From a virus (lineage: Duplodnaviria; Heunggongvirae; Uroviricota; Caudoviricetes): a DNA stretch of 55,239 nucleotides. Shown here one piece after another: positions 30,607 through 41,358 of this stretch. The stretch covers positions 1 through 55,239 of IMG/VR virus record IMGVR_UViG_3300033076_000726; one strand, 5' to 3'. Position numbers and translations under genes: made by a program. How positions within the stretch are numbered: the stretch's first letter is position 1; the number at the start of each line of letters is the position of its first letter. The notes under the pieces are model-generated. The model was not told where the DNA came from. It was given only the letters and a program-made list of their open reading frames with translations, and did not search any database.

Positions 30607-31888
30607 GAATTTTAATGAAGAAACCTTTTGTGTGGCACCGTGGGTGTCCACACATTTAAGTACATTTGGTAACATAATCCCTTGTTGTCTTTATAAACAA
30701 GAAGACCACCAAGTATTTGGACAATTAAAACAAGGTATACCAATTAAGGACGCATATAATTCAGATGTTGCCAAAGAAGTAAGAAGAGCTTTATGGAATG
30801 GTGAAAAAATAGATGCGTGCCAAATTTGTTGGTACAGAGAAGAAGTATCCAAAGGTAAGAGTATAACTGACAGTTATCGTTACAATTTGAATAATCATTT
30901 TATGAAATATATCGATGACATTGTTGCAAATACGAATGACGATTTTTCATTAAAAGAAGTTAACTTTAAAATGATTGACTTACGTTTTGATAATAAATGT
31001 AATTTAAAGTGTCGTATCTGTAATCCAAGTTACTCCTCGTCTTTATATAAAGAATATAAGGAATTGGGTTTCACCAATTTTAAAGATTTGGGACAACCAT
31101 ATAGTCAGTCAATTGATAGTGATGACTACGAATTTATCCTAAGTCAATTACATAATGTAGATGTTTTATTCTTTGCTGGTGGTGAACCATTAACACAAGA
31201 TAAACACTACGAAATTTTACAATATTGTATCGATAAGGGTTACGCCAAAAACATTTCAATTTGGATTACCACTAATTTAACAAAGATTCAATATAAAAAC
31301 TATAATCTTGTTGAAATGTGGAAACACTTTAAACGTATTGAGGTTACTGCAAGTATTGATGGATATGGCGCAAGAGGTGAATATCTAAGAAATGGTTCAA
31401 AATGGTCACAAGTTGTACAAAATAGAATTGATATTCTAAGAGAATTACCTGATATCTATTTTGCTATTGTCCCCACCATCAATATCATGAATAGTTACAC
31501 CATTATTGATTTATACAAAGAGTTTGTTACTGCGGGTTATATTAAAACGGGACATATGCATGTTAATCTATTAACACATCCGGCACATATGCAGATTCGT
31601 AATTTACCTGAAAATCATAAGGTTATCTTAAGAGAAAAATACGCAAAAATTATGGATTGGATTAGAGAAACTTATCCATATGATAATGAGGCACAAAAAG
31701 ATATCGAACAGTTTGAGTTTATACTTGGATTACTTAACCAAGACCGTTCTGAGGAGGAATTTCAACACTTCCTTAAAATGACCGATGTTGTTGACACATA
31801 TAGAGGTGATGACTTCTTTGGAGTGTTTACAGAATTCCAAGACTTCAATCCAAAACAAGAAACTAAACCTGTTGTAAATTTAATATAG
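30599..31888 (+). CDS. Radical SAM enzyme with N-terminal twitch-like domain
   Basis: FCVAPW...PCC...ACQICW; core DNKCNLKCRIC; FAGGEPL. Confidence 0.9.
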   Translation: MDKNFNEETFCVAPWVSTHLSTFGNIIPCCLYKQEDHQVFGQLKQGIPIKDAYNSDVAKEVRRALWNGEKIDACQICWYREEVSKGKSITDSYRYNLNNHFMKYIDDIVANTNDDFSLKEVNFKMIDLRFDNKCNLKCRICNPSYSSSLYKEYKELGFTNFKDLGQPYSQSIDSDDYEFILSQLHNVDVLFFAGGEPLTQDKHYEILQYCIDKGYAKNISIWITTNLTKIQYKNYNLVEMWKHFKRIEVTASIDGYGARGEYLRNGSKWSQVVQNRIDILRELPDIYFAIVPTINIMNSYTIIDLYKEFVTAGYIKTGHMHVNLLTHPAHMQIRNLPENHKVILREKYAKIMDWIRETYPYDNEAQKDIEQFEFILGLLNQDRSEEEFQHFLKMTDVVDTYRGDDFFGVFTEFQDFNPKQETKPVVNLI

Positions 31889-33120
31889 TGAAAATAAATC
31901 CTGAAACATTTTGTTATTTACCCTTTGGGTCGATTTATGTGTTTCCAGATGGTACATTACATCCATGTTGTATCGCATATCCATTTAAAGAAAATATAAA
32001 CTTTAAAGATTTCAATACTGTGGATGAGGTAATCAATAGTGAACCATATAAAAGGATTAGAAAAGAAATGTTGGATGGAAAACAACCAACAGAATGTGCC
32101 GAATGTTTTATCTATAAAAATGTTCATCGTACCAACATCAATCAGGAGTTTCATCAACAGATACAGGAACCCGATTTAGTTAATGACGATTATAGTGTAA
32201 ACAAAATTGTTTATACGGATTTAAGACTTTCAAATCATTGTAATTTTAGATGTAGAATGTGTTATCATGGTTCTTCATCGAGTTGGTATGATTATTGGGG
32301 TTATATTCTGGATAAACCTGAATATCAAAACGAAAATCCAAGAATTATAACTGCGGGGGAGAATGGTATTAGTAAATTTTCAGACGAGAATATTAACACA
32401 ATTCGTAAAATTTATCTTGCAGGTGGAGAACCTTTCATAACACCATCCACATTTGAATTATTAGATAAATTTACAGATGAACAAGCTAGTAAAGTAACGG
32501 TTTTGATAAACACAAATTTATCGACTCTAACATATAAAGGAATTAACATATTAGATAAGTTAAAGAAATTTAAATTCATTAACATATCTTGTTCATGTGA
32601 CGGTTATGGTAAAATAGGTGAGTATCAAAGACCTGGATTTAATTCAGATAGATTCTTTAAAAATTTAAGAACATTAGTGGATTTTAAAAATCAACACCCG
32701 AACTTTATTATTCAAATAGATTATACAATATCAACAATCAATATGTATCATTCGTTTGATTTTATTGAATATGTTGGTAGTCAATACCTACACCCAAATA
32801 ACATAAGATTTCATACAGTAACCCAACCGTTTTATTTTGCACCGGGTGCTTTAAGTGAAGAGACTAAAAAAGGTTTAGTTGAGTTTTATCAGAATGGGCT
32901 GAATAATTTAAAATACGATAATATCCACCTATTAACTCGACTTTTAAATGATTTTATTAACTATTTGAAGGTGACAAATGACGAGGAAGTTTACAATCAT
33001 TTAATGTCCAAGAAACAATATATGAACATTTCTTTAGAGGAAACTTTAAAGAGATTTGATGAAATAAATAACACCGACTACAGAGAAGTATGTCCATGGT
33101 TGGAGGAGAGTTTTAAATGA
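31888..33120 (+). CDS. Radical SAM enzyme with N-terminal twitch-like domain (GTG start)
   Basis: FCYLPF...PCC...ECAEC; core SNHCNFRCRMC; YLAGGEPF. Confidence 0.9.
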   Translation: MKINPETFCYLPFGSIYVFPDGTLHPCCIAYPFKENINFKDFNTVDEVINSEPYKRIRKEMLDGKQPTECAECFIYKNVHRTNINQEFHQQIQEPDLVNDDYSVNKIVYTDLRLSNHCNFRCRMCYHGSSSSWYDYWGYILDKPEYQNENPRIITAGENGISKFSDENINTIRKIYLAGGEPFITPSTFELLDKFTDEQASKVTVLINTNLSTLTYKGINILDKLKKFKFINISCSCDGYGKIGEYQRPGFNSDRFFKNLRTLVDFKNQHPNFIIQIDYTISTINMYHSFDFIEYVGSQYLHPNNIRFHTVTQPFYFAPGALSEETKKGLVEFYQNGLNNLKYDNIHLLTRLLNDFINYLKVTNDEEVYNHLMSKKQYMNISLEETLKRFDEINNTDYREVCPWLEESFK

Positions 33121-34965: not shown

Positions 34966-35403
34966 ATGATATATTGGTTAACCGGTCAACCCGGAGCAGG
35001 TAAAACTACCTTAGCAACATGGATAATGGCATCGTTCCCATCTAAAAGTGTACACATCGATGGTGATGATTTGAGAGATTGTTTCCAAGACAAAGACTTT
35101 AGTAGGGAGGGTAGGATAAAAAATGTTGAAAGGGCACAAAACATTGCTCAATTTCTACACCATAAAGGGAATACCGTGGTTGTTTCTTTTGTGTCACCAT
35201 ACAAAGAACAAAGAGAAGAATTCAAACAAAAAATGGGTGAAAACCTAACTGAAATTTATGTACATACAACCGAGGAAAGAGGTAAGGAGAAATTTCACGT
35301 CGTAGATTATGAACCACCAATAGAAAACTTCATAGACTGTGACACAACAAAAAGTACAGAATATAATACATTCCTAAATCTAAGAAGAAAATTAAATATA
35401 TGA
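34966..35403 (+). CDS. cysC: Adenylylsulfate (APS) kinase-like P-loop kinase
   Basis: WLTGQPGAGKTT, HIDGDDLR, DFSREGRIKNVERA, VVSFVSPYKEQR, EIYV. Confidence 0.8.
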   Translation: MIYWLTGQPGAGKTTLATWIMASFPSKSVHIDGDDLRDCFQDKDFSREGRIKNVERAQNIAQFLHHKGNTVVVSFVSPYKEQREEFKQKMGENLTEIYVHTTEERGKEKFHVVDYEPPIENFIDCDTTKSTEYNTFLNLRRKLNI

Positions 35404-35741
35404 GTAAAAAGTATGCATTGTTCATCGGAAGATGGCAGACATGGCACGAAGGACACAGATGGTTAATTGACCAACAATTAAACAAAGGTAAAAACGTTTG
35501 GATAGCTATTAGAGATGTGGAGGTTGACGAAAACAATCCCAAAACATCAAAAGAGGTTTTTGATAATTTAAAAGTAGAATTGAGTGATTTATTACAAACG
35601 GGTAAATTGTTCATTTCAGTAATTCCCGACATTGAATCAGTAAACTACGGTCGAGGTGTGGGTTATGAAGTTATCTATCACGAACCACCACCCGAAATTG
35701 CAGTAATAAGTGGAACAAACATTAGAAATGGTTCACTATAA
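35400..35741 (+). CDS. Minimal HIGH-superfamily (cytidylyltransferase-like) nucleotidyltransferase
   Basis: LFIGRWQTWHEGH (HxGH) and C-terminal ISGTNIR. Confidence 0.75.
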   Translation: MSKKYALFIGRWQTWHEGHRWLIDQQLNKGKNVWIAIRDVEVDENNPKTSKEVFDNLKVELSDLLQTGKLFISVIPDIESVNYGRGVGYEVIYHEPPPEIAVISGTNIRNGSL

Positions 35742-35937
35742 ACGACATTTAGCTAAAACCATTAGCTACAGAATAATTGGTACGATAACTACCGTCATAT
35801 TGGCAACATGTGCCGGTTTACCAATTAAATGGGCGGGTTTAGTTGGATTGGGTGAGTTAATAATTAAACCCATTATCTATTTTTTACATGAAAGAGTGTG
35901 GTATAAATGGATAAAATACGGAATAAAAAGGGACTAA
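35728..35937 (+). CDS. DUF2061-like small membrane protein
   Basis: KRHLAKTISYRIIGT...IIKPIIYFLHERVW; likely start ATG 35728. Confidence 0.8.
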   Translation: MVHYKRHLAKTISYRIIGTITTVILATCAGLPIKWAGLVGLGELIIKPIIYFLHERVWYKWIKYGIKRD

Positions 35938-35998: not shown

Positions 35999-36006
35999 TA
36001 TTTATA
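35999..36006 (+). promoter_or_regulatory. TATTTATA motif, candidate late promoter element
   Basis: aagTATTTATAgtt, same context as 11733-11746. Confidence 0.5.
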
Positions 36007-36028
36007 GTTAGTAAAATATTTTATATAT

Positions 36029-37921
36029 ATGAAAGGAACTTTTTTTTCGGCGGATTTCGTAACAGACAAGGACGACAATCTACGTCTAATTGAAATTAAC
36101 ACCGATACTGGTATATTGGAGTCACAAAAGTGGGTTTTTGATTGGACCGACTTTATTAGTGTGTTAAGTGCAAATAATATTACGGAGGTGGAAGTGGTGT
36201 ACAAATATGACATCCAAAAAGATATCATTTCAAGTTTATCAGAGGCATTAACGGCAAATGCACCGTTTATCACCTCTTTTACCGAACACATAGTTGCCGC
36301 AGATTCCATATTTCCAACATCACCAACAGATTCGACAAACAAGTTTATCATTAGATTTGCTTATGATGAGTCGGCTATTTTGGACTCCGAATATGCTAAA
36401 GGAACATTAAACCTATTAAAACTATTTGCCGATGCTGGTGATAGTGGTTCTATTACAAATTTCTACCACTCATCATCATATTACGGTAGTTACAATACTT
36501 TAGATACTAACCAATTTAACGGTAGTAATTTACCCGATATTGTTACAAAAACAGTGTTGGAAGCGCACCAACCGCATAAGTTCTATAAAATAGGTAATTC
36601 AGATTCGGGTTCTTTAGTGAGATATGAAAGTTTCATTGACAGAATTGCAACATCTGACAATATTTTACAACAATACCACATCCCACAATCACAAATTACA
36701 AAAGGAACTGTAAGTTCTATCCGTAGTTTCCAAATTGTATATGGGTCTAATTTAGATGTATGTTATGTTGCACAATATGAAATTGATTCAGTATTAGACT
36801 TACCAACATCAATTACATATGACGATAGTCGTATTGATAATTTAATCGAAAGTAAACATTATTACGAATACGCGACCAATACAATTAAAAACACAAACCA
36901 CGGACTTTTAGAAAATGAAACCATTTTAGATGTTGATGGAAATGAGGTTCAAGTTAAAGATGTTGTTTTAGGTAACACATACAAATCGTATTATGTTGCG
37001 GGTTCACCTAATACCGATGATTATGATGTGTTGAGACAATGGTATGTTACAGGTTCAACATTACCTGAAGGTTCTTATTTAACTTCATCTGTATTGGTAG
37101 GTAAATTCGAAGCAACAACATTTGCAAATGACATGACAGAAATTGTATTCCAAGACGGTTCTGATATTGTGATTGGTGGTGAAGCAAGAATGTTGGTTTA
37201 CAATCAATTAGAAGATAAAATCCAATACGTTAGAGTATCTGAATTAAACAGTAATTACTCAGTAATTGGTCAAACGGGATTAAATCCAATAAGTCAAATA
37301 AATTTAAATATTTACGACGAAGAACAACCAATATACAACATGAACATGGAAGATGTCGATAACTTTATTTTAAGTAACGGTAACTTATTAACATTCTATA
37401 TTACTCACAACTTAGGTATTTCAGGTAGTTGCTTTAAGGCAGGTACCAAAGTAAGAATGGCTGATGGTACAGAGAAGAACATTGAGGATGTACAAATTGG
37501 TGACCAAGTAATGTCATATAATGAAACAACAAACGAAATTGAACCTAAAGAGGTAATCGATTTAAAACAACCAATTCATAATGATTTGGTAAAATATACA
37601 TTCGATAAAGTACTCATTAAGGCAACTGAACCTAGAGAGGAAGATGTTATGTTAACATTAACATGTACACAAGACCATCCGATATATGTAAATGGTTTAA
37701 ATTTGGCATCATATCACCCAGGATTAACAATTCAAAGATATAATTTAGGTAGAGATATTAAAGCACTTGAAAGTGACGATGTGGTTAATTTATATGATGG
37801 TACAACATCAGTATTGAATAAATTACAAAGATTACCTGAAGTTGACACTCAAACTTACATCATAACCGTAGCAGATAATCACAATTTCTACGCAAATAAC
37901 ATATTAGTACACAACAAATAA
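36029..37921 (+). CDS. Circularly permuted ATP-grasp-like domain fused to two tandem Hint domains
   Basis: N-terminal SADFVTDKDDNLRLIEINTDTG (ExN near the N-terminus, as in GSP synthase/eukaryotic GSH synthase-type folds). Hint1: GLLENETILDVDG...ITHN (res 292-461). Hint2: CFKAGTKVRMADG...TQDHP...NFYANNILVHNK (res 468-630). Confidence 0.7.
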   Translation: MKGTFFSADFVTDKDDNLRLIEINTDTGILESQKWVFDWTDFISVLSANNITEVEVVYKYDIQKDIISSLSEALTANAPFITSFTEHIVAADSIFPTSPTDSTNKFIIRFAYDESAILDSEYAKGTLNLLKLFADAGDSGSITNFYHSSSYYGSYNTLDTNQFNGSNLPDIVTKTVLEAHQPHKFYKIGNSDSGSLVRYESFIDRIATSDNILQQYHIPQSQITKGTVSSIRSFQIVYGSNLDVCYVAQYEIDSVLDLPTSITYDDSRIDNLIESKHYYEYATNTIKNTNHGLLENETILDVDGNEVQVKDVVLGNTYKSYYVAGSPNTDDYDVLRQWYVTGSTLPEGSYLTSSVLVGKFEATTFANDMTEIVFQDGSDIVIGGEARMLVYNQLEDKIQYVRVSELNSNYSVIGQTGLNPISQINLNIYDEEQPIYNMNMEDVDNFILSNGNLLTFYITHNLGISGSCFKAGTKVRMADGTEKNIEDVQIGDQVMSYNETTNEIEPKEVIDLKQPIHNDLVKYTFDKVLIKATEPREEDVMLTLTCTQDHPIYVNGLNLASYHPGLTIQRYNLGRDIKALESDDVVNLYDGTTSVLNKLQRLPEVDTQTYIITVADNHNFYANNILVHNK

Positions 37922-37927
37922 TATACC

Positions 37928-38074
37928 ATGGCATCAAAGACAATTTACAAAAAAATTACTTTAGTCCAATCACAAACAAGAACACTTACTTTGTTAACGG
38001 ATGCAACTAAAAAACAAAAAGTAAACACAGTTGTAAGTAATTTTATTCAATATTTGAAGAACGCACACTCTTAA
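37928..38074 (+). CDS. Small 48 aa basic Thr/Lys-rich peptide (absent from ORF track)
   Basis: MASKTIYKKITLVQSQTRTLTLLTDATKKQKVNTVVSNFIQYLKNAHS; fills the gap 6 nt after the Hint gene. Confidence 0.6.
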   Translation: MASKTIYKKITLVQSQTRTLTLLTDATKKQKVNTVVSNFIQYLKNAHS

Positions 38075-38083
38075 TAGAATGTT

Positions 38084-38722
38084 ATGAAAAATATTTGGGT
38101 GTTTGGTGATAGCTTCACCGACAAACGTATTCTTTCCAATAATAACACATATACAGATTGGAAAGGATACGTACCAAAAACTTATCACGAAATATTAGGT
38201 GAACAATTAGGATTACCTGTTAAAAATTTTGCTGAGAGTTACGGAATGGATAATTACACAATATTTCAAACCTTGTGTAACAATATAAACGAAATCAATC
38301 AAGATATTATAGTTATCAATTGGAGTGAACCTGTTAGGTTTAGACTGGTTGATACTGCAACACAAAAATGGAGAACGGCATTACCCGTTAAAAGTTCAAG
38401 GGTTGCGAGAGGATTACCTTATGTAAACGGAGTAAAAGACGAAACTATTTTAGATGTTTTCACCAATAGAGAAAATCAATTATGGTTAACAGAAATTGAT
38501 AGTTGGATAAAACTTATTAACAGAGCATTATCAGATTCAATAGTTATTCATTGGACTTGGCACAACAACACACAATATCAATCAATAACCGAAGAAACAA
38601 ATGGTGAGGTTGTTGATTTTCACTATTCTGAGAAAGGTCATTTAGATTTGGCAAATTGGATATTAGAACAAATAAAGGTGGGTACAAATAAAAGTCCTTA
38701 CAATCAAAATTCAATACTATGA
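38084..38722 (+). CDS. SGNH/GDSL-like hydrolase or acyltransferase
   Basis: WVFGDSFT (block I Ser) and DFHYSEKGH (DxH). Confidence 0.65.
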   Translation: MKNIWVFGDSFTDKRILSNNNTYTDWKGYVPKTYHEILGEQLGLPVKNFAESYGMDNYTIFQTLCNNINEINQDIIVINWSEPVRFRLVDTATQKWRTALPVKSSRVARGLPYVNGVKDETILDVFTNRENQLWLTEIDSWIKLINRALSDSIVIHWTWHNNTQYQSITEETNGEVVDFHYSEKGHLDLANWILEQIKVGTNKSPYNQNSIL

Positions 38723-39276
38723 TAAATTACGAAGGTATTGTTTTCACTAAAGATGAATGTGAAGATATAAAAAACAAGGCGGACGAATGGATGGAGGCCA
38801 AACTATTAGTAAAAAGAGGTTTAGGTGAAGTTGAGGATATTGTCATCCAAAACAAAAGATATAACAAAGCGTCATATTTTAAATTAAAAAATGATTCACC
38901 ATATTATCAAAAATTAAACAATTCAATCAATAGTTTCGGTTATGAACTTATTGCAAATGAGTTAGATGCGGGAATATTAAAGTACGAAAAGGGTAATTTC
39001 ATTTTTCTCCATAATGATTTACCAATTGAAGGGGAAAAGAGATTTTTCTGTATCGTCACACAATTAAGTGACGATAGTGATTATGTTGGTGGTGATTTTA
39101 GATACCTAATTGATAATCAACCACACACAATGATTAGAACCATCGGTAATGCGATTATGTTTAAACCAGAAGTCCTACACGAGGTAACAATGGTAGAAGG
39201 TGGAACTAGGTTTTCATTGGTAATATGGGTTAATTATGAACAGGTAAAATCTTTAACTAAACCTTCCCTTATCTAA
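38719..39276 (+). CDS. 2OG-Fe(II) oxygenase (prolyl-4-hydroxylase-like)
   Basis: KYEKGNFIFLHND (HxD), YVGGDF, LHEV, RFSLV. Confidence 0.85.
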   Translation: MINYEGIVFTKDECEDIKNKADEWMEAKLLVKRGLGEVEDIVIQNKRYNKASYFKLKNDSPYYQKLNNSINSFGYELIANELDAGILKYEKGNFIFLHNDLPIEGEKRFFCIVTQLSDDSDYVGGDFRYLIDNQPHTMIRTIGNAIMFKPEVLHEVTMVEGGTRFSLVIWVNYEQVKSLTKPSLI

Positions 39277-39905
39277 TGCCAAATCTTTTTGTTTATGGTT
39301 GTAGTAATAGTGAATCTTTTAACACTAAAGCTCATTGGGCAATAAATTATGTTAAATGGAAAGGATACATACCAAAAACTTATGGTGAATTGATAAGTGA
39401 TAAATTAAATCTTAATTTAATAAATTACTCCAAATCAGGGACAAACAATCAATTTATTTTTCAAAAAATATGTGAGACTTTTAAAAAAATAAAAGAAGAT
39501 GATGTTGTTATTGTTCAATGGACAAACGTTATTCGTTTTAGGCTTGTAAACGACAAAAACGAATGGGTTGAATTTTATTACGGTAATGATGATTATTTAA
39601 AAAAACTCAATCAATTTGAAAACATATCTAAACAAACGATAACTGAAATTTTTGTAAATAGAATGAACCCAAAATATTTAGAAGAAATCAAAACTTGGGA
39701 GTTAATTATAAAACAAGTTTTAAATAAAAACAAATTACTATTTTGGTCACCATTTGAGGAATTCAACAGTTATCATTTATTGGAAAGAATTGAAACCGAA
39801 ACCAATGGAGAAATTCACGATATACACATAAGTGAAAATGGACATAAAGATTTAAGTGAGTTACTTTTAAAAGATTTAAATACTAATAAAATAAATTTTA
39901 TATGA
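39276..39905 (+). CDS. SGNH-like protein, paralog of 38084
   Basis: FVYGCS, WKGYIPKTY (cf. WKGYVPKTY), TNGEIHDIHISENGH. Confidence 0.65.
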   Translation: MPNLFVYGCSNSESFNTKAHWAINYVKWKGYIPKTYGELISDKLNLNLINYSKSGTNNQFIFQKICETFKKIKEDDVVIVQWTNVIRFRLVNDKNEWVEFYYGNDDYLKKLNQFENISKQTITEIFVNRMNPKYLEEIKTWELIIKQVLNKNKLLFWSPFEEFNSYHLLERIETETNGEIHDIHISENGHKDLSELLLKDLNTNKINFI

Positions 39906-40603
39906 GTGTTGGGGTTTGTTCAATTGCATACGGTAAAGAACACGTTAATGAATGTAAAAATTTGATAAGTAAAATCAATACAGAATTTTACGTATTAACG
40001 GATGATGAAACATTTGTAACGGATAACTCAATTGTGGATAAAACTACGTTTAATTTTAACAAAAAAAGAATTCCAATACTTGAGGCATTTAAAAAACACG
40101 ACACGGTAATATGTTTTGACACAGATATTGATTTAAAAACAAATATTGACCACAACCAATTCGAAAACATTGAAGATGGATTATATGTAAAGTGGTTTGG
40201 TGGTTTACAATTCATCAGAGGATATAAAATATCTATAAATCAAATATTAAAAAGCTCAACACCGTTTGATGATTTAAATCAATATGGAACGGCGTTAACA
40301 GAATGTGGTGCTAACGAATCTAACATCGGTTTTTTTGATGAATATGTCTTTGTTTTAAAAATTAGAGATGAAAATAAAAGAAAAGAATTCATATCTAATT
40401 GGGAATCAATAAACAACAGAACCATAAATAGACAACCTAAAGATAGACATGGTAAAAATTTAAATGGTGCGGTTGAAAGTCTCATTATATCATTAGCTTG
40501 TAATTTAACTGGAATTTCGTTATATTTTACTGAGTTACAACCGTTTTTTAATGCAATCGTACATTATGATTCGGTTCAACCACCATCTAAAACGATACTA
40601 TGA
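39902..40603 (+). CDS. GT-A-like protein, paralog of 20164
   Basis: VGVCSIAYGKEH...VICFDTDIDL (DxD). Confidence 0.5.
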   Translation: MSVGVCSIAYGKEHVNECKNLISKINTEFYVLTDDETFVTDNSIVDKTTFNFNKKRIPILEAFKKHDTVICFDTDIDLKTNIDHNQFENIEDGLYVKWFGGLQFIRGYKISINQILKSSTPFDDLNQYGTALTECGANESNIGFFDEYVFVLKIRDENKRKEFISNWESINNRTINRQPKDRHGKNLNGAVESLIISLACNLTGISLYFTELQPFFNAIVHYDSVQPPSKTIL

Positions 40604-41358
40604 AATTAGTTTGGACATATAATATTTTAGCCAAAGTTGGCAATAAAACCGAGGAGAGAAAAAGAATACTAATCAATTATTACATATTGTCCATCCAATC
40701 GGCAAAACGATTGGGATATTATTGTGTAATTTATACCGATTCATTTTCTGCAAAATACTTTGAAAAAATTGTTGACGAAATACACATTTACGACCACTAC
40801 GAAAATTCAATACAATGGGATTGTTATAAGATAAAAGCGTGTGAAGAAAGAGACGATGATTTTGTTTTAATTGATGGGGACGTAATTCTACATTCCAAAC
40901 TACCACCTATGAATGATGATGTGATGTTTGACACATATGAGGTTGCAAATTGGAAAGATGAGTATGAACCTGTAATAAATCAATTTACAAAATTAGATAT
41001 TGACAAAATAATTGATGTTTGGTGTGATAAAAGAAAACCCGTATTCTCATGTGGGATTCTTTATTTTAAAAATGATTCAGATAGAAAGTTTTACGTCGAC
41101 CAATGGAAAAAATACAACAATTTCTTAAATGAAATTATAAAAACAAATGAGGTTGATGTGGATGTTGCAACAATGGTGGGAGGACAATATTTGGTAACCT
41201 TGTGTGCAAATCATTTGAACTTAAGTAGAAGTTATTTAACCCCACATTTAGGTGCAACTGGTAATTCATATAAACATCACTGCGGAGCATTAAAATACAA
41301 TAACCCAATTGTCCCAAGGGATTACATAATAAGTGTTGAAAATAAAATTTTAATTTAA
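40600..41358 (+). CDS. GT-A-like protein (DUF6734-like)
   Basis: LSIQSAKRLGY..VIYTDS...FVLIDGDVIL (DxD)...CGIL. Confidence 0.5.
   Translation: MKLVWTYNILAKVGNKTEERKRILINYYILSIQSAKRLGYYCVIYTDSFSAKYFEKIVDEIHIYDHYENSIQWDCYKIKACEERDDDFVLIDGDVILHSKLPPMNDDVMFDTYEVANWKDEYEPVINQFTKLDIDKIIDVWCDKRKPVFSCGILYFKNDSDRKFYVDQWKKYNNFLNEIIKTNEVDVDVATMVGGQYLVTLCANHLNLSRSYLTPHLGATGNSYKHHCGALKYNNPIVPRDYIISVENKILI

Follow-up and report, generated by a model that had tools for sequence, protein, structure and literature searches.

A phage ATP-grasp ligase-like protein with a fossil Hint domain, optional Hint cassettes and a predicted small partner

Introduction

What would a phage make with a protein in which a ligase-like domain is followed by two Hint domains that lie only six residues apart? 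This question is raised by a gene in a stretch of viral DNA of 55,239 nucleotides (Caudoviricetes; positions 1 to 55,239 of IMG/VR record IMGVR_UViG_3300033076_000726), hereafter referred to as the window. The gene is an open reading frame (ORF) at positions 36029-37921 of the plus strand and encodes 630 aa. An initial annotation, made from the sequence alone, had proposed that the first Hint domain (Hint1) cuts before Leu462 and that the second (Hint2) activates Ser467, such that the hexapeptide between them, LGISGS, would be excised as a thioester able to cyclise or to be conjugated. The analysis reported here, based on family-wide comparison and structure prediction, points to a different answer. 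We favour, with modest confidence, the reading in which the product of this gene is the larger of the two proteins of an ATP-grasp amide ligase specific to viruses, with a self-removing Hint cassette on the tail of that large subunit. The conserved unit of the family is the ATP-grasp domain together with a fossil Hint domain and a protein of 45-48 aa encoded immediately downstream.

A viral family whose N-terminal domain is predicted to be a permuted ATP-grasp

Relatives of the ligase-Hint protein form a family of more than 830 proteins by a word-index search, all of them metagenomic and on contigs of up to 265 kb, and an exhaustive search with residues 1-291 gave 245 clusters at 50% identity. 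The Atlas clusters of the family are 100% viral, and one locus carries a Kyanoviridae marker. A tblastn search against 50,697 phage records returned only unrelated inteins matching Hint2, and no relatives of the family were present among the phage isolates, PHROGs and BFVD entries searched.

The N-terminal domain (residues 1-291; 36029..36901, plus strand) was assigned as circularly permuted ATP-grasp ligase-like from an AlphaFold model, from fold matches and from residue conservation. The model, built with 109 diverse sequences, is of high confidence (predicted local distance difference test, pLDDT, 96.8; predicted TM score, pTM, 0.91), and four independent libraries agree on its fold. Foldseek matched it in the PDB to the glutathione synthetase-like 5oeu and 1m0w, to YjfC (7uk6), YgiC (7uk8) and GspS (2io7), with E values from 7e-6 to 2e-4 and a best probability of 1.0. 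The aligner VIA, which is independent of Foldseek, gave a Z score of 8.9 both to 5oeu_A (root-mean-square deviation, rmsd, of 5.0 Å over 213 residues) and to 7uka_A (4.3 Å over 199 residues), followed by GspS (Z 8.5) and the E-64 ligase Cp1B (Z 8.0). Matches in AlphaFold DB included GspS, glutathione synthetase and entries named 'circularly permuted ATP-grasp', and those in the ESM Atlas were GSP_synth, CP_ATPgrasp_1/2 and GSH synthase clusters, with TM scores of 0.54-0.58. In the VIA superpositions, the match to permuted enzymes covers model residues 1-288 (Z 8.0-8.9), whereas canonical ATP-grasps, namely ArgX/LysX, RimK, TTLL and Ddl, align only from around residue 50 (Z 4.3-6.0), as predicted by a permutation that moves the D...E-x-N hairpin to the N-terminus. 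The initial annotation had recognised a permuted ATP-grasp start from the motif D-F...I-E-I-N-T-D, which occupies residues 9-26, and the model indeed folds in this way.

Residue conservation is consistent with this assignment. The putative Mg-binding hairpin D9...E22-x-N24 comes first in the domain, with R109, D119, K174 and R232 further on, and each of these seven residues is conserved in 95-100% of the 109 N-terminal sequences (D9 in 100%, E22 in 99%, N24 in 98%, K174 in 95% and R232 in 98%), despite identities down to 24%. The stretch P-D-x-V-x-K174 is similar to the phosphate-binding Lys strand of ATP-grasps, S-I-R232-S-F-x-I-V-Y-G to the D-I-R-x-x-V-V-G strand of RimK/LysX, and I-L-Q-Q-Y-H to the adenine-binding hinge. 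K174 and R232 are candidate nucleotide and transition-state residues, and D9, E22 and N24 candidate metal ligands. Thus, residues 1-291 are predicted to form a very divergent permuted ATP-grasp of the GspS, glutathione synthetase and YgiC type, and this domain is probably catalytically active.

The divergence is such that sequence libraries return little. Residues 1-291 had no match in Pfam, and a single-sequence search of PHROGs gave nothing usable. The Pfam family GSP_synth matched weakly in 8 of the 109 members, with a best E value of 0.0027, and no curated family model rose above threshold. A profile of the 109 N-terminal domains searched against PDB sequences gave only chance matches, such as S100-A9, and no viral structure in BFVD matched below an E value of 0.04. 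As a separate observation, the top cellular matches in AlphaFold DB were an uncharacterised protein of 473 aa (TM 0.64) and residues 205-492 of a 'Piwi domain-containing protein' (TM 0.66), both of which score well above the GspS-type entries.

Hint1 is an ancient Hint domain fixed in the enzyme

The domain that follows, Hint1, was delimited to residues 292-461 (36902..37411, plus strand) by a profile-profile match, fold superposition and conservation. A single-sequence search barely detects it (Pfam E value of 0.0026 at best), and a PHROGs search with residues 285-467 gave nothing usable. However, when profiles of Hint1 (70 sequences) and Hint2 (93 sequences) were compared with hhalign, they matched end to end, with a probability of 98.2% and an E value of 3e-14. 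In the full-length AlphaFold model (pLDDT 78.9), from which the superpositions of both Hint domains were made, residues 290-460 superpose on inteins with Z scores of 16.9 (6zgq_B; rmsd 2.0 Å over 141 residues, VIA), 16.5 (6rpp) and 16.2 (the Prp8 intein, 6mwy). Hint1 therefore models as a Hint fold, as the initial annotation had supposed, and the register in which that annotation had aligned the two Hint domains is confirmed by the profiles. Its coordinates also hold, namely residues 292-461 at 36902-37411, LGISGS at 37412-37429 and Cys468 at 37430.

Hint1 contains no Cys and its sole His is H460, so that it has neither Cys1 nor the block-B His. This pattern, noted at the outset as Gly in place of Cys1, no TxxH and a retained C-terminal His-Asn, turned out to be kept throughout the family: G292 is found in 98%, H460 in 90% and N461 in 90% of 70 family sequences, and by regex count P0184, which has RN, is the only representative without HN at the end of Hint1. 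Two acidic residues of the block-F region are conserved as well (D444 in 100%, E441 in 95%), and a conserved insert at approximately residues 320-354 is specific to the family. Profile matches found Hint1 in nearly all family members, including distant ones. Hint1 is thus an ancient Hint domain that lost its N-terminal chemistry, kept its His-Asn and became a fixed part of the enzyme; say, an old cassette that was later fixed and stripped.

A protein of 45-48 aa is the predicted second subunit

Six nucleotides past the ligase stop codon starts an ORF of 48 aa (37928..38074, plus strand), which was singled out by its recurrent adjacency and by a predicted complex. An ORF of 45-48 aa lies directly downstream of the ligase gene in five out of five independent contexts, which include an orthologue without a complete Hint, a form with three Hints, and a member only about 25% identical in the N-terminal domain. 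When residues 1-467 were modelled together with the 48-aa protein, the ipSAE score was 0.85, versus 0.01 for the best control, and it passes the mark set for this score. Of 80 solved complexes 58 attain that mark, as do 2 of 110 mismatched pairs, counts that are approximate here, own alignments having been used. Between runs, at least 89% of contacts recur, and the pLDDT of the partner is 81 or higher.

In the predicted complex, the C-terminal helix of the partner lies on the ATP-grasp sheet and the helix at 127-141; it contacts residues 8, 10, 20, 129-141 and 231-256, among them the neighbours of D9 and R232. Its N-terminal strand pairs with residues 423-434 of Hint1, where residues 367-371 and 404-407 are contacted too. 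The helix thus probably packs behind the catalytic sheet, on its back face, and in these models the partner has the appearance of a structural subunit, stapling the ATP-grasp domain to Hint1, rather than that of a threaded substrate.

Hint2 resembles type-A BIL domains

Hint2 (residues 468-629, plus the terminal Lys630; 37430..37918, plus strand) was identified by Pfam and by sequence and fold matches in the PDB. It carries a full catalytic set, namely C468, T547-Q-D-H550 and H628-N629, and the protein ends in VHN-K-stop; the initial annotation had read all of these features correctly, including the block-B TQDH at residues 547-550. Pfam matches were Hom_end_hint (3e-10) and AXH (2e-11), and the best sequence matches in the PDB were 6tmm and 6y75, the BIL2 domain of the Tetrahymena BUBL1 locus, with an E value of 7.5e-05. 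Its best fold matches were 6y75, 6tmm and the Clostridium thermocellum BIL domain 2lwy: to 6y75_B, VIA gave a Z score of 22.0 (rmsd 1.7 Å over 146 residues) and Foldseek an E value of 8e-13. The Z score was 18.7 to 2lwy and 14-18 to dozens of inteins and to Hedgehog (1at0).

No substitution of Cys1, of the block-B His or of the terminal HN was seen among 93 Hint domains of the family (100% conservation), and 97% of them keep the block-B Thr. Of 115 complete Hints, 78 have K at position +1, 26 have R, 5 have F and 2 have T, and none has C or S. Such a preference for K or R, with neither Cys nor Ser, is the signature of a type-A BIL domain rather than of a canonical intein. The +1 residue is Lys in 64 of the 71 terminal Hints and mostly Arg in the internal ones, and the residue at position -1 is not conserved.

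Hint2 is a mini Hint of 163 aa, with no insert domain and no homing endonuclease, placed in a variable C-terminal tail. It departs from a canonical class 1 intein in that its +1 residue is Lys and its C-extein consists of that Lys alone before the stop codon; with no Cys, Ser or Thr at +1, standard splicing is therefore impossible. Conversely, it shows all the features of sequence and fold of a type-A BIL domain that were examined, although its identity to BIL domains is only about 25% and its place in the BIL clade itself is putative. Hint2 is a complete, type-A BIL-like Hint domain, for which self-cutting is predicted.

Complete Hints come and go in the tail

Across the family, the constant unit of the large protein, ATP-grasp plus Hint1, is followed by zero, one, two or three complete Hints, or by degenerate remnants. 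A core tree of 84 rows requires 14 or more changes in how many complete Hints a member carries, and it contains a sister pair with 100% support in which one member has no complete Hint (P0126) and the other has three (P0127). Partial or degenerate remnants of Hints occur in 26 of the 84 representatives. The Hint-less orthologue P0126 (locus L006) keeps the small ORF and a 2-oxoglutarate (2OG) oxygenase gene as neighbours. The possibility that Hint-less members are truncated gene calls was considered, and was rejected for P0126, where the small ORF starts 4 nt past the stop codon.

When a protein carries several Hints in tandem, these share only 25-43% identity with each other and belong to different Hint clades, which have positional preferences; recent tandem duplication was for this reason discarded as the source of multi-Hint proteins. 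Conversely, Hints of different members resemble each other beyond their cores, with identities of 90% versus 47% in one comparison and 69% versus 32% in another. Hint2 of the window shares 81% identity with the second Hint of P0107, a protein that even has its unusual insert, while the cores are 42% identical; against P0032 the values are 77% and 53%. The tails of Hint-less members (HN-K, HN-AKSY, HN-PAPPPKL) finish like the ends of Hint-bearing ones (HN-K, HN-KL), which looks as if cassettes had been inserted in a short tail just ahead of a basic residue. Because copy number varies, copies within a protein diverge, and Hints resemble each other more than their cores do, we infer that complete Hints are optional, exchanged, self-removing cassettes that lie outside the conserved job of the ligase.

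The nucleotide composition of the window gene shows little contrast along its length: the GC content is 0.316 in both Hint2 and Hint1, versus 0.341 in the N-terminal domain, and GC at third codon positions likewise differs little. There is therefore no compositional sign of a recent import of Hint2.

A further domain of approximately 130 aa follows one complete Hint in P0131, P0136, P0147, P0162, P0171 and P0145 (about 600-757 aa). Its first 30-50 residues align with Hint, but where a Hint would have His-Asn these members share a tail of the form Y-Q/K-R-Q ... L-x-x-H-L. The domain is thus a Hint that has decayed or else a novel C-terminal domain.

The linker LGISGS is a variable tail

Only LGISGS lies between Hint1 and Hint2, between N461 and C468 (37412..37429, plus strand), as first described, and its meaning was assessed by a census of linker lengths in relatives. 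Among 79 representatives in which Hint1 is followed by another Hint, the spacer from the HN of Hint1 to the next Cys1 is absent (0 aa) in 15, a single residue in 5 and two residues in 28. By regex count it spans 0-14 aa, with peaks at 2 aa (AP, Ala-Pro) and 0 aa; counting Cys-rich forms as well extends the range to 35 aa. A spacer of 6 aa is found only in the lineage of the window, and LGISGS and LGISGG only in close relatives. With a spacer of 0-2 aa in most relatives, there is no conserved excised peptide and often none would be possible; a product cassette flanked by Hints, of the BUBL or SICLOPPS kind, is thus not what is seen at this locus. LGISGS is the variable C-terminal tail of the core protein, which provides the N-extein end for Hint2, and is not a product. 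Of the two features whose conservation in homologues had been put in question, a Hint1 with dead N-terminal chemistry and a live His-Asn does recur, whereas the linker length does not.

Longer spacers occur in deep branches of the family. There, the His-Asn of Hint1 is followed by a module of 27-35 aa with at least six Cys (approximately C-x2-C...C-x4-C-x3-C-x2-C), a Gly-rich stretch and a Lys. The module is C-terminal in P0249, P0240, P0253, P0260, P0235 and P0247, and lies between Hint1 and a complete Hint in P0242, P0229, P0262, P0238 and P0226. Nowhere else in the family does a sizeable peptide stand between two Hints. The module may be a zinc knuckle, or else a disulfide-rich peptide that is released.

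Proposed mechanism and alternative explanations

Based on established Hint chemistry, Cys468 of the window protein would form a thioester at Ser467 by an N-to-S acyl shift, aided by T547 and H550, and Asn629 would cyclise. Hint2 would thereby cut or splice itself out, set free either through hydrolysis or through the amine of Lys630 as attacking group, and would leave a core of about 467 aa that ends in LGISGS, with or without the Lys. The mature core, together with its partner, would use ATP and Mg to activate a carboxylate and join it to an amine, as the conserved residues suggest. Candidate substrates are a peptide C-terminus, either its own tail or that of the partner, or a metabolite of the surrounding tailoring island.

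Several points weigh against this interpretation. Cleavage, ATP use and partner binding are all predictions. The scores for the ATP-grasp fold are moderate (Z 8-9, TM 0.36-0.58), and the aligner itself notes that a Z score around 8 can reflect a common arrangement; in addition, all Pfam families fall below threshold for the N-terminal domain. The fully conserved Cys1, block-B His and HN, and a +1 Lys that is invariant among close homologues, could mean that the Hints are useful, for instance in thioester transfer, and their excess conservation over the cores could come in part from stronger constraint and not from transfer. Moreover, the near-universal His-Asn of Hint1 is unexplained by a purely structural role, and if Hint1 does cut at N461, the chemistry of Hint2 would be irrelevant to the mature enzyme. 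The simplest version of the favoured reading accounts neither for this His-Asn nor for the +1 Lys, which keeps alive the rivals based on tail cutting and on conjugation.

The strongest of these rivals, unlikely in our judgement but deserving of attention, holds that Hint2 is functional and not selfish: the Ser467 thioester would be passed to a nucleophile, such as the epsilon-amine of the +1 Lys, a Lys of a phage or host protein, or a small molecule, so that the core becomes covalently tagged or anchored without ATP. The nearest match of Hint2 in both sequence and fold is precisely BIL2 of BUBL1, a maker of Lys isopeptide conjugates (PMC8616854), and the Lys at +1 of 64 of 71 terminal Hints, together with the invariant catalytic residues, would be expected from such a role. 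However, orthologues without a complete Hint retain the partner and the neighbours, sisters differ by zero to three copies, internal Hints mostly have Arg at +1, which is no nucleophile, and the -1 residue is unconserved. The tail-cutting alternative, which we regard as rather improbable, instead makes Hint1 an active C-terminal autoprotease, in which Asn461 cyclises and all that lies downstream is released, be it a disposable region where Hints accumulate and decay or, in deep branches, the six-cysteine peptide. This would explain why His-Asn is kept in about 90% of members or more, including Hint-less ones that end in HN plus 1-10 residues, why Asp444 is invariant and Glu441 95% conserved in the block-F region, why six-Cys modules of 27-35 aa come right after HN in deep branches, and why 26 of 84 representatives carry partial or degenerate Hints. 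A discarded tail, however, should keep neither its appended Hints catalytically perfect nor a terminal Lys, and a tail of six residues here, and of none in many members, leaves no product at this locus.

If both Hints are combined, one arrives at the excised LGISGS thioester that had initially been proposed, in effect a natural SICLOPPS-like cassette. The geometry fits, with a Hint that ends in HN, a spacer and a Hint that starts with Cys1, and a few distant members do have a sizeable, Cys-rich spacer; but the spacer is no longer than 2 aa in 48 of 79 representatives, its sequence is unconserved, Hint2 is optional and exchanged, and the first residue of the spacer, Leu, is no nucleophile, which makes this the least credible of the explanations. 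The C-terminally activated ligase that the initial annotation had offered as an alternative is a possible product. A broader version of the cassette idea, in which Hint1, with its dead N-terminal and live C-terminal chemistry, acts together with a live Hint as a natural device for peptide release or transfer on an ATP-grasp ligase, is improbable, if less so than the hexapeptide model. Were it true, Hint1 would free the N-terminus of the tail while the next Hint holds its C-terminus as a thioester, and in the six-Cys branches a ribosomal peptide would be released, cyclised or conjugated, and modified by the fused ligase, hydroxylases and other tailoring enzymes; the six-residue linker of the window would then be a reduced remnant, or its thioester would now conjugate the ligase itself. 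Finally, the protein might be no enzyme at all but a structural or virion protein, in which an ATP-grasp-like domain is a dead scaffold and Hint a maturation protease, as in tail-fibre chaperone domains. The tail-fibre-like genes that flank the gene, seen over the window as a whole, and the subthreshold Pfam ATP-grasp models would allow for this, but the candidate metal- and phosphate-binding residues of the ATP-grasp are 95-100% conserved at identities down to 24% and the immediate neighbours are enzymes, and we consider this highly doubtful.

Relation to known systems

The permuted ATP-grasp ligases, namely the E. coli glutathionylspermidine synthetase GspS (2io7), YgiC/YjfC (7uka, 7uk6), eukaryotic glutathione synthetase (1m0w, 2hgs) and fungal Cp1B (9cjn), also have the D...E-x-N hairpin first, and the chemistry expected to be shared is formation of an acyl phosphate from a carboxylate followed by attack of an amine. 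The phage domain differs from them in its size (291 aa, versus 370-600), in its identity of about 10-14%, which leaves it below Pfam thresholds, in being fused to Hint and in its predicted need for a 48-aa subunit. With respect to substrates, the nearest structural relatives of the core join the carboxylates of peptides to amines. According to PMC12568646, which cites Pederick et al. (2023), YgiC and YjfC are peptide-spermidine ligases. Cp1B, another of these relatives, ligates epoxysuccinate to an amino acid. An ATP-grasp that works with a small adjacent or dedicated protein is also known from LysX/ArgX with LysW (3vpb, 5k2m) and from RimK with S6, and ArgX and LysX are indeed among the fold matches of the N-terminal domain (Z 6.0 and 5.5). 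Unlike LysW, to which it has no sequence similarity, the modelled 48-aa protein packs as a structural staple against Hint1 and the rear of the sheet, with no C-terminal tail threaded into the active site.

As for Hint2, type-A BIL domains (BUBL1 BIL2 6y75 and 6tmm; C. thermocellum 2lwy) share with it the mini-Hint fold, Cys1, TxxH and His-Asn, a +1 residue other than Cys, Ser or Thr, the lack of an endonuclease, and a location in a variable part of the protein that carries them. Cleavage at the N- and C-terminus is the main outcome with BIL domains (PMC7664689), and BIL2 of Tetrahymena BUBL makes Lys isopeptide conjugates (PMC8616854). The phage Hints differ from them in their ATP-grasp host, in a C-extein of a single Lys, in occurring as zero to three tandem copies behind a dead Hint, and in an identity of about 25%. 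Canonical class 1 inteins (the gp41-1, DnaB and RecA mini-inteins) have in common with Hint2 the fold, the Cys1/TxxH/HN set and a patchy, exchanged distribution, but Hint2 lacks a +1 Cys, Ser or Thr, a real C-extein and a homing endonuclease, and is not inserted into a conserved active-site motif. SICLOPPS is an engineered cassette for peptide cyclisation that is ordered as C-intein, peptide and N-intein. The order of the phage protein is formally the same, an HN-ending element, a peptide and a Cys1-starting element; however, both of its flanks are whole Hint folds, the first has no N-terminal chemistry, and the peptide is absent or of 1-2 aa in most relatives.

Literature searches that combined Hint domain with cyanophage and permuted ATP-grasp with phage returned nothing relevant, and no paper on an ATP-grasp-Hint fusion was found. 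The initial suggestion that no system with this architecture has been described thus stands for the layout, while BUBL BIL2 and the type-A BIL domains are conceptual precedents. The parts, an ATP-grasp ligase and a BIL-type Hint, are known, and their combination is undescribed in the literature and family libraries searched. The interest of the locus lies outside the hexapeptide: in a Hint fold permanently recruited as an enzyme domain, in a permuted ligase with a predicted second subunit of 48 aa, and in a tail that serves as landing pad for endonuclease-free Hint cassettes moving between diverged alleles. The family offers a natural system in which to study how Hints spread and decay without homing endonucleases, as well as a source of compact, diverse domains with a basic +1 residue, which, if they self-cleave as predicted, may be useful in protein engineering. 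It also provides an entry to a tailoring pathway of ocean jumbo phages, with radical SAM, 2OG oxygenase, glycosyltransferase and sulfate-activation genes.

Genomic setting

The window belongs to a 119-kb IMG/VR virus contig with an estimated CheckV completeness of 36%, and the phage, a marine one known only from uncultured material, is therefore large. All genes of the window are on the plus strand, and the GC content is 27-42%. A megablast search with 15 kb of the window gave no match, and no usable cultured relative was found. The ligase gene lies in an island of enzyme genes, including a radical SAM protein, a carbamoyltransferase, an adenosine 5'-phosphosulfate (APS) kinase, a 2OG oxygenase, an SGNH protein and a glycosyltransferase, with tail-fibre-like genes on both sides at the scale of the window.

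The 2OG-Fe(II) oxygenase gene (38719..39276, plus strand) was identified by a Pfam match to PF13640. A PF13640 gene lies one to five genes downstream of the ligase in loci L001, L004 and L006 and in the contig of P0131, so that it is loosely placed; the oxygenase may act in the same pathway as the ligase. Just upstream of the ligase, at 34966-35937, the window encodes an APS-kinase-like protein (145 aa) and a small nucleotidyltransferase (113 aa). The same upstream pairing is found in the contig of P0131, in an unrelated context, where the nucleotidyltransferase has 133 aa and a CTP_transf_like match. Such neighbours may point to a connection with the activation of sulfate or of nucleotides.

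Directly downstream, at 38084-41358, five enzymes end in similar hydrophobic tails, namely SIL, SLI, NFI, TIL and ILI, which may in part be explained by four-base overlaps of start and stop codons in AT-rich DNA. The GC skew is 0.037 in the 2-kb bin that contains the ligase gene (36001-38000), versus 0.12-0.31 in most other bins. In the radical SAM protein encoded at 31888-33120, an N-terminal SPASM-type Fe-S domain (Pfam SPASM, residues 9-73) gives a match that precedes that of Radical_SAM (residues 114-265), which is the reverse of the usual order.

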